DNA of 64,000 nucleotides, taken from Candidatus Melainabacteria bacterium 17Bon1m. GTDB taxonomy: Bacteria > Cyanobacteriota > Vampirovibrionia > Obscuribacterales > Obscuribacteraceae. The translations under genes were made by a program, and so were the position numbers. The stretch lies in NCBI GenBank assembly GCA_032128875.1, contig JAVLKG010000005.1:1-64000 (forward strand). Reading direction: 5' to 3'. The notes below the pieces were generated by a model. It was given only the letters and a program-made list of their open reading frames with translations, made no database searches and had not been told where the DNA came from. The first letter of the stretch is position 1, and every line of letters begins with the position of its first letter. Below are positions 543 to 11,524 of this stretch, one piece after another.

Positions 543-1548
543 TTACAGGACAAATCCCATCGCCGTGGAGGCTTTGGAGAGTGTCTTCTCGGCAACCACT
601 CGGGCACGTTCGCGTCCATCCCTTATCACCTGAAGCACGCGCTCGGGCTCGTTCATGAGCTCTTTGTAGCGTGCCTGAATCGGTGCCAGGTAATTGACGA
701 TTGTTTCCGCCAGTAGCGGTTTGAACGTGCCATAGCCCATGTCGGCGCACTCGCTGACCACTTCTTCTCGCGTCTTTCCTGTGAGAACTGCGTAAATCGT
801 GAGCAGGTTGTGCACCTCGGGGCGTTCTGGATTGTCGAACTCAAGACCGCGTTGACTGTCGGTCTTGGCGCTCTTTATCTTCTTGCGAATCACCTCCGGC
901 GGGTCCATCAGGTTGATGCGACTGGCGTCTAAGGTGTCTGACTTGGACATCTTCTTGGTGCCGTCCGTCAAGCTCATTACCTTGGCGGTCTCTGTCACCA
1001 GATACGGTGCGGGCAGGACGAGGACGTCTTTGCCCTTTCCGAAGAGACGATTGAATCGCGTGGCGATATCGCGCGTCAGCTCCAGATGCTGTTTTTGGTC
1101 GAGACCGACAGGAACAAGATCGGCGTCGTACAAGAGAATGTCCGCAGCCATGAGGACTGGGTAGTCGAGGAGGGTCAGATTTGCGTCTTCACCTTCTCGA
1201 GCCTTCTCGCGAAACTGAATCATGCGCTTGAGCTGACCCACCGATGTGATGGAGCCCAGCAGCCGAGCCAGTTGCGAGTGCGCTGCCACGTGTGACTGCA
1301 CAAACAGAGTGGACTTTTGAGGGTCCAATCCGCAGGCGAGATACAGGGCGGCGGTGGACAGCACGTGCTGCCCTAATGTCTTAGGGTCGTAGTCCTCGGT
1401 AACTGCGTGCAAATCGGCAATGAAGAGAAAGACCTCATGCGCGTCTTGCAGTTCTATGGCGCTTTTAACGGCGCCAAAGATAGTTCCCGAGGTGAACGTT
1501 GCCGGTCGGGCGGACGCCCGAGAGGATGCGGTTTGTCGTCGATTTCAT
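543..1548 (-). CDS. trpS: Tryptophanyl-tRNA synthetase, encoded in two frames (+1 shift at 1479-1474)
   Basis: AAGGAG SD then ATG at 1548. Frame 0 reads MKSTTNRILSGVRPTGNVHLGNYL (HIGH motif HLGN) then W-R-R-stop. The +1 frame continues GAVKSAIELQ...ADLHAV...YPVLMAADIL...VPVGLDQKQHLELTRDIA...KMSKS to the stop at 543. Joined length 334 aa. Confidence 0.95.
1465..1488 (-). promoter_or_regulatory. Candidate programmed +1 ribosomal frameshift site GGG AAC TAT CTT TGG CGC CGT TAA
   Basis: CTT-T slippery site followed by TGG; matches the prfB site TAT CTT TGA C except for one base; frame-0 stop 3 codons after the TGG. Confidence 0.65.
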
Positions 1549-1569
1549 GACGTTCTCCTTTTGGGATTG

Positions 1570-2705: not shown

Positions 2706-4211
2706 TTAGGCCTTCGGACGAACGCCCCAGGCGCAGCGCGGCGAAAGAGCCAGGGTTTCTGGATCCTGCTCCACTGCGACGATGCCGCCGAGGAATTCGT
2801 AGTCGAGCTTGGTGCCGAGGTACTCCCAGATGAAGGGAACCTTGCTCACCGGGCTGATCAGACGGTCGTGGCGAATGGAGGCGTCGCGGCGCTCCAGAAG
2901 CGGGTTGACCATCAGCTTCTCGTCGTCGCGCCAGTCCTTGCAGAACGGGAAGAGCTTCAGCAACCAGCCGTTGATCTTCTCGCCGCCCGACTCACTGCGC
3001 TGCTTGTAGATATCCTCGAAGTAGCGCGTGTCGGCGTCGCCGGCAGCCGCTTTCGCAAGCTTGTCGACGATCTCGATGACGTGACGCAGCCAGGAGTTGA
3101 GGTCCGGATAGCGCTCGTTGAGCTGCCGAACCTTGGCTGCCAGCTTCTGCCAGTCGGCGACTTCGCCCTTGAGGATGATCTCGGGGATGCCGCACATCGT
3201 GGCGACGCTGTACTCGAAGTAGGACTGCATCGAGTCCATGAGCACGATCTGCGAAACGGCTTTCTCGACGGGACCCGTCGTGCCGAAGTCGCTGATGATG
3301 AGCCCATGCGTCTCGTCGCCGATGTAGCCGCGAATGGCGTCGGAGAACTCACCGAAGCAGCCGGCCCAGTCGTTCGTCGGCGAACCGAGAACGAACTCGT
3401 TGCGGATGATCTTGATGGTTTCCTTGCCTTCGTGCGAGACGAAGTGCTTGCGCCACTTCTCCGGGTCTTGCGCGATGTAGGCGGCGAGCCCCTGCGTGAC
3501 GGTCAGCCAGATGTGATCCGGCGTGAGCATCAGCGGGTAGTGCTGGCGGAAAGCCAGGTCGGCAGCAGACACCAGCCCGTGAATCGGGAAGTGGCTGACG
3601 ACTGAGGCTTCGCCTTCACTCACTGCTTCGAGCGTCTTCTTCGGCGTGGCAGCGGGGGCGCCGCGACGGCCGCCACCGCCCATCATCTGTCCGCTGAGCA
3701 CCGCCTCGAACATGCTACCGAGCGTTGTGGACGCGTGCGGCGAGTAGGCGGCGTTGACGCGGCAGACGCGGAAGCGGGTGACGGGAATCGGCTTGGTTGC
3801 GCTCTCGGCGACGGGCGGGGTGACCGGTTCCGGCGTCGGTTCGGTGACCGCGACGGCTGCACTGTTCGTGCCACCGTCATCGGCGACGACGGCTGCGACG
3901 GGCGCCGGAGCCGGTTGGGCGGCGGGAGCAGCAACGGCAGTCGTAGCCGGCGTTTCCACCACTTCCACCGCTTCGGTCACCTGAAGCTTGGCCTCGTCCT
4001 TCTTGCGGCTCACCGTCCATTCGCTGCCCGCGAACTTGGCGATGGCGGCATCGACGGTGGCATCGGCGATGCCTTCGATGCTCACTTCGATGAGCTCTCC
4101 TTCTTCGCTGTCGGCAATTGCCGTCACCAGGGCTTCGAAGAGAGTCGCGACCGCGCGCTGGGCGCGAAGGGCTGCGACTTCTTCCTTGCTGGGAATCGCT
4201 TTGTCGTTCAT
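2706..4211 (-). CDS. DUF4419-family protein with N-terminal extension and Ala/Pro-rich linker
   Basis: HGLVSAADLAFRQHYPLMLTPDHIWLTVTQG, DFGTTG, LMDSMQSYFEY and CGIPEIILKGEVADW recalled as DUF4419 motifs; AGGAG SD before ATG 4211. Confidence 0.8.
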   Translation of the reverse strand: MNDKAIPSKEEVAALRAQRAVATLFEALVTAIADSEEGELIEVSIEGIADATVDAAIAKFAGSEWTVSRKKDEAKLQVTEAVEVVETPATTAVAAPAAQPAPAPVAAVVADDGGTNSAAVAVTEPTPEPVTPPVAESATKPIPVTRFRVCRVNAAYSPHASTTLGSMFEAVLSGQMMGGGGRRGAPAATPKKTLEAVSEGEASVVSHFPIHGLVSAADLAFRQHYPLMLTPDHIWLTVTQGLAAYIAQDPEKWRKHFVSHEGKETIKIIRNEFVLGSPTNDWAGCFGEFSDAIRGYIGDETHGLIISDFGTTGPVEKAVSQIVLMDSMQSYFEYSVATMCGIPEIILKGEVADWQKLAAKVRQLNERYPDLNSWLRHVIEIVDKLAKAAAGDADTRYFEDIYKQRSESGGEKINGWLLKLFPFCKDWRDDEKLMVNPLLERRDASIRHDRLISPVSKVPFIWEYLGTKLDYEFLGGIVAVEQDPETLALSPRCAWGVRPKA

Positions 4212-4322
4212 CAATTCTCCTAGACTCCCTTTGGGGGAGCGTGAAATTTGGATGCGGACGACGCCCTTGCCTTGCGGGAATTCGCAAGGCAAGGGCCGGG
4301 GCAGAGTTGCGACGAGCGATGC

Positions 4323-10888: not shown

Positions 10889-11524
10889 ATGAAGAAGCTC
10901 ATCGTCATCGGCGTCATCGCCGCAGTCGTGCTCGGCCTCATCGGCTGGGGCATCAGCACCTACACCGAAATCCGCAACGACGGCCGCAACACCGAGCTGT
11001 CCATCACGGCGAAGTACAAGGCCATGCAGGCCAGCTACGGGCAGGACCGCCTCGCCCTCACCGACCAGCTCGGCATCGCCCGCGAGAAGCGTGACGCGAT
11101 GGACAAGATCCTGACGGATGCCGTCAGCGGTCGCTACAACAAGCCGGGTTCGCCGCAGGTGGACAACGGCAAGCTGTTCTCGGCCATCACCGAGGCCTAT
11201 CCCGACCTCACCGGTCTGAACATCTTCGACCAGATCATGCCGTTCATCACGAAGATGCGCAGCAAGTTCGCGCAGGACCAGGCTCAGATCTCGGAGATGA
11301 TCCGCGACTACAACTCGTGGCGCACGACCGGCAGCTTCCTGCACCCGACCTTCGTCAACTGGGCGGGCTTCCCGAGCGACGCGCTCGAGATGCAGGCCAA
11401 CGGCAACACCTACCGCGGCAAGGAAGCGCTCGACCGCATGTCGCGTCCGATCATCGGCTCCGACACCGGCGTCATCTTCGACACGGGCGTGGACCAGCCG
11501 GGCGTCACTCCCGAGAAGAAGTAA
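10889..11524 (+). CDS. LemA-like protein (copy 2)
   Basis: AAGGAG SD before ATG 10889; shares IAREKRDA, EAYPD and WRTTGS.LHPTFV.WAGFPS with copy 1. Confidence 0.8.
   Translation: MKKLIVIGVIAAVVLGLIGWGISTYTEIRNDGRNTELSITAKYKAMQASYGQDRLALTDQLGIAREKRDAMDKILTDAVSGRYNKPGSPQVDNGKLFSAITEAYPDLTGLNIFDQIMPFITKMRSKFAQDQAQISEMIRDYNSWRTTGSFLHPTFVNWAGFPSDALEMQANGNTYRGKEALDRMSRPIIGSDTGVIFDTGVDQPGVTPEKK

Follow-up and report, generated by a model that had tools for sequence, protein, structure and literature searches.

The window analysed here, a stretch of 64,000 nucleotides (nt), covers positions 1 to 64,000 of the forward strand of contig JAVLKG010000005.1 of Candidatus Melainabacteria bacterium 17Bon1m (assembly GCA_032128875.1), a member of the Obscuribacteraceae within the non-photosynthetic Vampirovibrionia, and represents contig C5 of a 7.55-Mb genome in 35 contigs that is 93% complete and has a GC content of 50%. 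Near its beginning, on the minus strand, lies a gene (543..1548) for an accessory tryptophanyl-tRNA synthetase (TrpRS; gene trpS) whose coding sequence is divided between two reading frames and which would yield a protein of 334 amino acids via a +1 shift, the junction being read as CTTT. The sequence has a Shine-Dalgarno (SD) element, AAGGAG (1555..1560), 6 nt 5' of an ATG (1548-1546). The open reading frame (ORF) that begins there in frame 0 (1465..1548 in the ORF listing) consists of 27 codons, translated as MKSTTNRILSGVRPTGNVHLGNYLWRR, and a TAA; its first 24 codons correspond to the N-terminus of TrpRS, including the HLGN form of the HIGH motif. After TAT (1482-1480) comes the putative P-site slip codon CTT (1479-1477), and the frame-0 A-site codon TGG (1476-1474) is followed by CGC CGT TAA, with the TAA at 1467-1465. 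The first codon of the +1 frame is GGC (1475-1473), the extra base being the T at 1476, and the +1 ORF (543..1475) runs for 310 codons plus a stop (545-543), contains the KMSKS motif and has zero Trp codons. Skipping the T at 1476 gives an uninterrupted TrpRS in translation. Reading the sequence 5' of the shift site, we found no start codon for the +1 frame in this genome. Shifting at any other point than CTT|T would break the conserved NYLGA, and the position of the shift is thus fixed by the sequence. The invariant block around it, which we call the shift cassette (TC GGG AAC TAT CTT T GGC GC), occupies 1471..1490. The original prediction, that trpS is autoregulated by a prfB-like +1 frameshift at a Trp codon, had described this arrangement from the SD element and the ATG to the 27-residue frame-0 peptide and the full-length enzyme, and the sequence and the ORF list confirm it exactly; they also bear out its remark that no more than a weak SD-like element, GGGA, lies upstream of CTT.

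The joined protein is classified by its sequence as a full-length bacterial class I tryptophanyl-tRNA synthetase. It matches Pfam PF00579 over residues 4-287 (E 1.7e-76), and the solved TrpRS structure 3sz3 aligns to residues 8-333 (E 6e-88), crossing GNYLGA without a gap. A HIGH-type motif lies 5' of the shift and KMSKS lies 3' of it. The enzyme has a restricted distribution. With a threshold of E<=1e-70, this gene type was found in 16 of the 104 genomes of the family, a count that includes this genome, and in none of the 3 genomes of the order's other family or of 297 more genomes searched from the class. Even within the genus, 5 of 13 genomes gave no match; their completeness ranges from 64 to 93%, so absence is not certain for all of them.

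The genome also carries a second, uninterrupted trpS on contig C2 (~434254-435315, plus strand), which encodes a protein of 353 residues that is 35-37% identical to the joined protein and, unlike the accessory copy, contains many Trp residues. Within its anticodon-binding domain, this protein has four cysteines in the arrangement C-x22-C-x6-C-x2-C, as read from its sequence, and its best match in the Protein Data Bank is 2g36_A, the Thermotoga maritima enzyme (E 2.2e-77). In T. maritima TrpRS this spacing binds a [4Fe-4S] cluster, according to part of PMC2954223. By these features, the C2 copy is classed as a [4Fe-4S]-motif TrpRS of the T. maritima type, the housekeeping enzyme across the class. 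Its kind is present in every relative that gave a match (40 of 41), and all 15 genomes that hold a Trp-free copy hold an Fe-S-motif copy as well. One genome of the family (G084, 98% complete) encodes a cyanobacterial-type, unshifted TrpRS with 5 Trp (C7:29270-30262), which falls among the cyanobacterial enzymes in our tree. G084 is without an Fe-S-type copy, so the cyanobacterial-type enzyme would be its only TrpRS, and it looks as if the housekeeping enzyme has been replaced there.

The extra T is a stable feature of this gene type. Thirteen of the 16 gene-bearing genomes of the family have it, and a stretch of 20 nt around it, TCGGGAACTRTCTTTGGCGC, is invariant among them. The site reads TAT CTT TGG CGC in nine genomes, within an identical 21-nt block, and in one more; the other three shifted genomes read TGT CTT TGG CGC, which makes the codon before CTT TRT in all 13. 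The three unshifted genomes use other synonymous codons at this place (TAC CTG GGG, TAC CTC GGC and TAT CTT GGT). The surrounding architecture is conserved as well. AAGGAG precedes the ATG in 12 of the 13 shifted orthologues and AAGGGAG in the remaining one; frame 0 takes 24-28 codons to reach CTT, with a TAA closing it 3-4 codons further on; and the +1 ORF, of 309-314 codons, is intact in all but one gene, which is cut by a contig end.

We also scanned metagenomes for a pattern that allows either 0 or 1 base between CTT and GGC with the same flanks. Eleven of the 17 matches have an inserted base, which is always T. The proteins of these 11 contigs are 58-94% identical to the joined protein and all Trp-free, the +1 ORF is intact wherever it is not cut by a contig end, and a TAA follows 3-4 codons past CTT in 11 of 11; judged by their N-termini, 3 of them belong to lineages outside the 13 genomes. 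The six insert-free matches are distant TrpRS genes, 39-47% identical, apart from one fragment too short to place, and Trp is present in all except that fragment. Throughout the shifted set (13/13 genomes and 11/11 contigs), CTT T is retained, the A-site codon is UGG, the C 3' of TGG is invariant and GGC is the sole Gly codon at +1.

Evidence that the inserted T is not an artifact comes from independent data. Contigs from all four public runs, aligned to 1100-1900, cover positions 1474-1480 with zero inserted or missing letters. The runs comprise a possible source run, an RNA-seq library whose sample also gave another possible source run, a drinking-water metagenome and an aquifer metagenome; two of them belong to different studies and habitats. 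In the RNA-library contig, all three Ts are retained at a depth of 36. These are consensus contigs, in which the three Ts are present and rare variants could escape. The same extra T in 13 species genomes, 11 metagenome contigs and the contigs of four runs is not an assembly slip. Public gene calls have missed the arrangement: shifted genes are annotated as N-terminally truncated proteins of 273-304 residues or with a false start in the +1 frame (326 residues). The joined full-length product of a shifted gene does not occur among the best 120 of 7922 protein-database matches.

Phylogenetic analysis indicates a single origin of the shift. In a maximum-likelihood tree of 34 rows, the 15 shifted sequences (13 from genomes and two complete genes from metagenomes) fall into a single clade (support 98/96) within a clade of 25 Trp-free sequences (100/98), the other 10 of which are unshifted. 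The sister group of this larger clade is formed by the TrpRS enzymes of photosynthetic cyanobacteria. The topology was already the same, though less well supported (86/69), in an earlier tree built on fewer rows. Branch lengths within the shifted clade, added from the tree, sum to ~4.2 substitutions per site. A one-base deletion would undo the shift, yet it has been kept throughout a single clade, which argues that it arose once and has persisted for long without reversion.

Both parts of the reading frame are under purifying selection. In pairwise Nei-Gojobori comparisons between shifted orthologues, the ratio of nonsynonymous to synonymous divergence (dN/dS) is 0.09-0.25 in the +1 part, with dS ranging from 0.5 to saturation, and 0.16-0.56 in the 24 codons on the 5' side of the shift. 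Selection can also be traced at the level of codon choice. There are 136 alignment columns in which the shifted genes have an invariant residue with synonymous codons, and only 11 of these columns use a single codon. Four of the 11 are at the site, namely, GGG (-3), AAC (-2), CTT (0) and GGC (+1), and the hypergeometric chance of finding all four site columns among 11 of 136 is ~2e-5. The columns compared share one phylogeny, which makes the comparison between them a fair one. In outgroup trpS genes the same positions vary, with CTT in 6, GGC in 27 and GGG in 12 of 74 loci (of 79 loci inspected, the motif could be recognised in 74). Judged from these alignments, the synonymous sites of GGG AAC TRT CTT T GGC are frozen and the site itself is under selection.

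These results bear on most of what had been proposed. The three Ts that were to be checked in reads are present at the site in the contigs of all four runs, and an uninterrupted CTT GGC, which close relatives might have carried, does not occur inside the shifted clade. Relaxed selection alongside an intact second trpS had been named as a sign against the proposal; the second gene indeed exists, but selection on the shifted copy is not relaxed. That a prfB-like +1 shift is required for expression is strongly supported by comparison, through the conservation of the site across the clade, the intact +1 ORFs, the selection on them, the frozen synonymous sites and the organism's own prfB. We consider it very probable, from the sequence comparisons, that the gene uses an obligatory, selected +1 frameshift. 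Speaking of trpS as if it were the sole copy was imprecise, given the second gene, and the idea of the cell's trpS regulating itself needs revision. An accessory paralogue that stands beside a housekeeping Fe-S-motif TrpRS is better described as a backup sensor than as a case of simple autoregulation.

The amino acid composition of the product provides a further clue to its role. All 15 genome-derived members of the accessory clade have zero Trp, while the outgroups have 1-5 and the sister enzymes of cyanobacteria have 4-5 at conserved positions. With a Trp frequency of 1.07% in the long ORFs of the genome, ~3.6 Trp would be expected in 334 residues. Among the best 120 of 7922 database representatives, the top 25 all lack Trp and the next 95 all have 4-5; the top 25 consist of 15 truncated or mis-started calls of shifted genes (273-326 residues) and 10 full-length unshifted proteins that are 61-67% identical to the joined protein. 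The lack of Trp in these 10 unshifted relatives dates the Trp-free state to before the shift. Since the product is Trp-free, the codon at the shift site is the only UGG that a ribosome meets in shifted genes, and the enzyme could be completed during the very shortage of Trp-tRNA that would trigger its synthesis. A Trp-free enzyme that restores Trp-tRNA is what one expects of a protein made under Trp-tRNA shortage, and the composition thus lends separate support to the idea that shifting would increase as Trp-tRNA becomes scarce.

Short ORFs with one Trp codon were seen upstream of two of the unshifted Trp-free relatives, at -69..-21 from the trpS start of L036 (in genome G086) and at -38..-8 from that of L037 (in genome G050), where they encode MLAILGNKGDAWHCL and VALWLCARL, respectively. 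No short upstream ORF with a Trp codon was found within 260 nt 5' of four shifted genes. The one-Trp upstream ORFs could be remnants of an older leader-peptide control that was replaced by the frameshift, or they could be due to chance.

Our preferred reading is a programmed +1 shift at CUU_UGG_C, gated by the supply of Trp-tRNA, that controls a Trp-free accessory TrpRS, and we think that it is probably correct. Ribosomes would start at the strong SD element and ATG and read 24 codons, which would place peptidyl-tRNA-Leu(GAG) on CUU in the P site with UGG next to be decoded. When charged tRNA-Trp is plentiful, UGG would be read and translation would stop at the UAA 3-4 codons on, giving a useless 27-mer. 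When it is scarce, the A site would stay empty and the tRNA-Leu would re-pair on UUU, as in prfB, after which Gly-tRNA would read GGC and the full enzyme would be made; alternatively, Gly-tRNA might bind out of frame. The new enzyme would then recharge tRNA-Trp and shut down its own synthesis. The shortage might arise from a lack of Trp, from inhibition of the housekeeping enzyme or from the loss of that enzyme's Fe-S cluster. That the shift senses Trp-tRNA is, in our judgment, somewhat more plausible than the opposite, with both the slip mechanism and the dependence on Trp inferred.

The components that such a mechanism would use are present in the genome. UGG is read by the single anticodon CCA, for which there are two tRNA-Trp genes; the single tRNA-Leu(GAG) could pair with UUU through G:U, A:U and G:U, as for release factor 2 (RF2); and two tRNA-Gly(GCC) genes serve GGC, the abundance of tRNA-Gly being judged by gene number alone. 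The organism's own prfB (contig C7, ~10950-11030, plus strand) reads GAA TAT CTT TGA C, with the body of RF2 in the +1 frame, and its shift site is one base apart from that of trpS (UGG for UGA). The 20 nt before the prfB site contain no SD-like run. Together, prfB and the single tRNA-Leu(GAG) suggest that the ribosomes of this organism already perform the CUU-to-UUU slip. The second tRNA-Trp(CCA) gene differs markedly from the first; it has an encoded CCA end, abuts a tRNA-Phe (contig C1, complement 269233-269381) and lies in an apparent tRNA array. Another arrayed tRNA has a 6-nt anticodon loop.

Several observations weigh against gating by Trp-tRNA. UGG is not an independent signal: any T placed between CTT (Leu) and GGN (Gly) creates UGG, which is therefore forced, and this weakens the Trp-sensing argument. 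The Trp-free trait would support expression under Trp-tRNA shortage for the whole clade and not the shift specifically. The 16S 3' end is canonical, GGATCACCTCCTTTCT, with the anti-SD sequence CACCUCCUUU, and no SD-like stimulator was found at the 3-nt spacing of Escherichia coli prfB; GGGA lies 5 nt before CTT and pairs weakly with the anti-SD. RNAalifold detected no conserved structure across the clade among 10 shifted sequences. A 6-bp hairpin, UGGCGC...GCGCCA (1457-1476, minus strand), with the frame-0 UAA in its loop, is confined to the closest genus, and its start within the A-site codon would keep it from forming on the ribosome. Long ORFs show no clear avoidance of the CTT-TGG codon pair (289 observed and 338 expected, a ratio of 0.86), which indicates that the bare hexamer is not notably shift-prone ordinarily and that the yield may be low. 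Finally, the consensus contig from the RNA library is no proof of transcription, and minor edited forms would be invisible in it. A genome-wide scan for CTT_TGG followed by a +1 ORF returned 209 raw candidates from 5810 sites, mostly ordinary genes in the other frame. In a search of 7 loci against Rfam at a permissive threshold, no T-box, leader or other relevant RNA was found, and two matches were at chance level.

The possibility that the gene is a pseudogene or contains a sequencing or assembly error is refuted as far as sequence data reach, and we regard it as extremely improbable. A single extra base in a short run of Ts is the commonest type of error, and the genome has an intact trpS elsewhere, but the identical insertion recurs in all the species genomes, metagenome contigs and runs described above, both ORFs are intact, dN/dS stays at 0.09-0.25 with saturated dS, and every complete copy is free of a second lesion. 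The lesion is moreover identical throughout one whole clade and not patchy. A different possibility is that no catalytic enzyme is produced and that translation begins internally, for instance, at the TTG at 1412, and gives a truncated TrpRS-like protein with a noncanonical role, the 27-mer being a separate product. Public gene callers annotate just such proteins of 273-304 residues, and TrpRS paralogues with side functions exist, such as the TrpRS II associated with NOS mentioned in part of PMC9437257. The 24 upstream codons are nevertheless conserved as a TrpRS N-terminus that includes HxGN and continues in frame from a conserved SD element and ATG, the junction restores GNYLGA exactly, and a truncated form would be devoid of the HIGH motif, all of which makes an internal start highly unlikely.

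The main rival is a constitutive throttle, in which the shift is real and needed but takes place at a fixed low rate regardless of Trp-tRNA, either to keep the enzyme scarce or as a "saviour indel" that was later fixed. The forced UGG, the lack of a recognised stimulator and the fact that CTT-TGG is not avoided genome-wide all fit this explanation; a strong, conserved SD element would suit a constitutive shift of low efficiency, and the translational "correction" of indels is a class of frameshifting according to the part of Atkins et al. 2016 that treats it. On the other hand, the T and its 19 neighbouring bases have remained unchanged over ~4.2 substitutions per site, though a one-base deletion restores the frame. 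The retention of the T despite such easy restoration argues for selection on the site itself. A change of the promoter or the SD element would have been a simpler way to throttle expression, and a throttle leaves the Trp-free product without explanation. We therefore see a constitutive throttle as possible but rather doubtful. Recoding of another kind, by quadruplet decoding of CUUU or UGGC with a tRNA that has an enlarged anticodon loop or by removal of a U through transcriptional slippage or editing, seems very improbable. The genome has unusual tRNA arrays, but an 8- or 9-nt anticodon loop occurs in 0 of its 68 tRNAs, one of which has a 6-nt loop, and the contig from the RNA library retains the three Ts. 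A run of three Ts is also too short for known polymerase slippage, which counts against a transcriptional origin. Reading of the quadruplet UGGA by a tRNA-Gly with a 9-nt loop has been discussed for some mitochondria (part of PMC5009743). With no enlarged-loop tRNA in the genome, quadruplet decoding is no serious rival here, though slippage is not thereby demonstrated.

Compared with known systems, the trpS site most closely resembles that of prfB, CUU_UGA_C, as described in part of PMC5009743: both have UAU before the slip codon CUU_U, a C 3' of the A-site codon, a short ORF0 (24-28 codons here and 25 in prfB) with most of the protein encoded in the +1 frame, and an obligatory shift. As proposed, they would also share the logic that the product of the gene speeds decoding of the A-site codon. 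Unlike in prfB, the A site holds a sense codon, UGG, and what would be sensed is charged tRNA-Trp, so the tie to the product is analogous but indirect. The trpS site also has no SD-like element 3 nt upstream, and whereas prfB is near-universal, the shifted trpS is an accessory gene copy restricted to a single bacterial family. The yeast Ty1/ABP140 heptamer, CUU_AGG_C, differs by one base as well. With the mechanism proposed for trpS it has in common the re-pairing of the P-site tRNA on CUU, GGC at +1 and an A site occupied by a sense codon, which in trpS would be slow only conditionally, through scarcity of Trp-tRNA. According to the same part of PMC5009743, a slow sense codon together with abundant tRNA-Gly for GGC drives 40% shifting in Ty1, and a slow A site underlies the shifts of both RF2 and Ty1. 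Ty1 differs in being eukaryotic, in owing its slowness to a constitutively rare tRNA-Arg and in having a product that does not act on the tRNA sensed.

Inducible second synthetases provide another point of comparison. Ribosome-mediated attenuation of an auxiliary trpS, trpRS1 of Streptomyces coelicolor, was reportedly described by Vecchione and Sello in 2010. The Streptomyces TrpRS1 is induced and indolmycin resistant (part of PMC9437257). It resembles what is proposed for the present gene in being a second, inducible TrpRS that is switched on by the pausing of ribosomes at Trp codons; unlike the present gene, trpRS1 relies on a separate leader ORF and transcription termination, while here the sensing codon would lie inside the coding sequence and the output would be a change of frame. 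Antizyme (OAZ), which is mentioned in part of PMC5009743, uses an obligatory +1 shift as a metabolite sensor in negative feedback, as proposed for trpS. Its differences from trpS lie in its eukaryotic origin, a stop codon as the A-site codon, stimulation by polyamines and a downstream pseudoknot. The threonyl-tRNA synthetases T1 and T2 of Anabaena, a member of the same phylum, offer a case in which a backup synthetase is expressed when a cofactor-dependent enzyme fails, under zinc deficiency, according to parts of PMC4787780 and PMC9437257. As described there, T2 is unlike the trpS of this study in that its induction is transcriptional, with a 200-fold rise in mRNA, and does not involve recoding. 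For the shifted TrpRS, a link to cofactor failure is speculation.

The neighbourhood of trpS gives no functional clue. Small hairpins on the minus strand (TGACCG..CGGTCA at 1570-1589 and GTTGCA..TGCAGC at 1600-1614) lie just 5' of the conserved AATCCCAAAAGGAG leader; the orthologues have other sequences in the same region, which are also self-complementary in appearance, and these hairpins may be a terminator or an element of the 5' untranslated region. Promoter and terminator consensus scans of 100-2300 gave nothing usable for trpS. The two small ORFs that flank the gene (158-448 and 1676-2125) have zero matches in Pfam. The upstream neighbour on the minus strand (2709-4292) encodes a protein of 528 residues with a C-terminal DUF4419 domain (E 1.7e-65) and a linker rich in Ala, Pro and Val.

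To our knowledge, very few bacterial cellular genes have an established programmed +1 shift, and prfB is the sole established autoregulatory case. Our literature search turned up no account of frameshifting in trpS or TrpRS, and neither "tryptophanyl" nor "trpS" occurs in the first 300,000 of the 449,034 characters of PMC5009743. One "+1 tRNA synthetase" cluster, assigned to phase variation, appears in part of Antonov et al. 2013 (PMC3711429), with the synthetase unnamed in that part. As far as our searches went, a TrpRS clade wholly devoid of Trp is likewise an adaptation unreported in the literature. If the proposal is true, this would be the first case of programmed frameshifting in the control of an aminoacyl-tRNA synthetase and, among bacterial +1 sites, the first to sense a charged tRNA. 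As a second conserved bacterial +1 site, it would extend the principle of RF2 from a protein factor to a charged tRNA, and it would add a mode of regulation of aminoacyl-tRNA synthetases beside T-boxes, attenuators and operator mimicry. It would also be a natural use of "hungry codon" shifting, the natural importance of which is left open in the part of Atkins et al. 2016 devoted to it. In practical terms, annotation pipelines now truncate the shifted genes or would flag them as broken, and, if it works as proposed, the cassette of ~20 nt would be a compact sensor of Trp-tRNA charging for synthetic biology.

For the Obscuribacteraceae themselves, the cassette may, as an attractive though rather doubtful speculation, be viewed as a translational failure alarm for a putative Fe-S housekeeping TrpRS that would be sensitive to oxygen or iron supply. 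In such a scenario, members of the family that live in soil and water and have large genomes would have kept the ancestral [4Fe-4S]-motif TrpRS of a mostly anaerobic class and would have acquired a cluster-free TrpRS of the cyanobacterial type, which was then purged of Trp, with a UGG "tripwire" set in its own frame. Oxidative stress, lack of iron or an inhibitor of TrpRS would leave starved ribosomes to slip at this UGG, and the backup enzyme could thus be produced with no need for a transcription factor.

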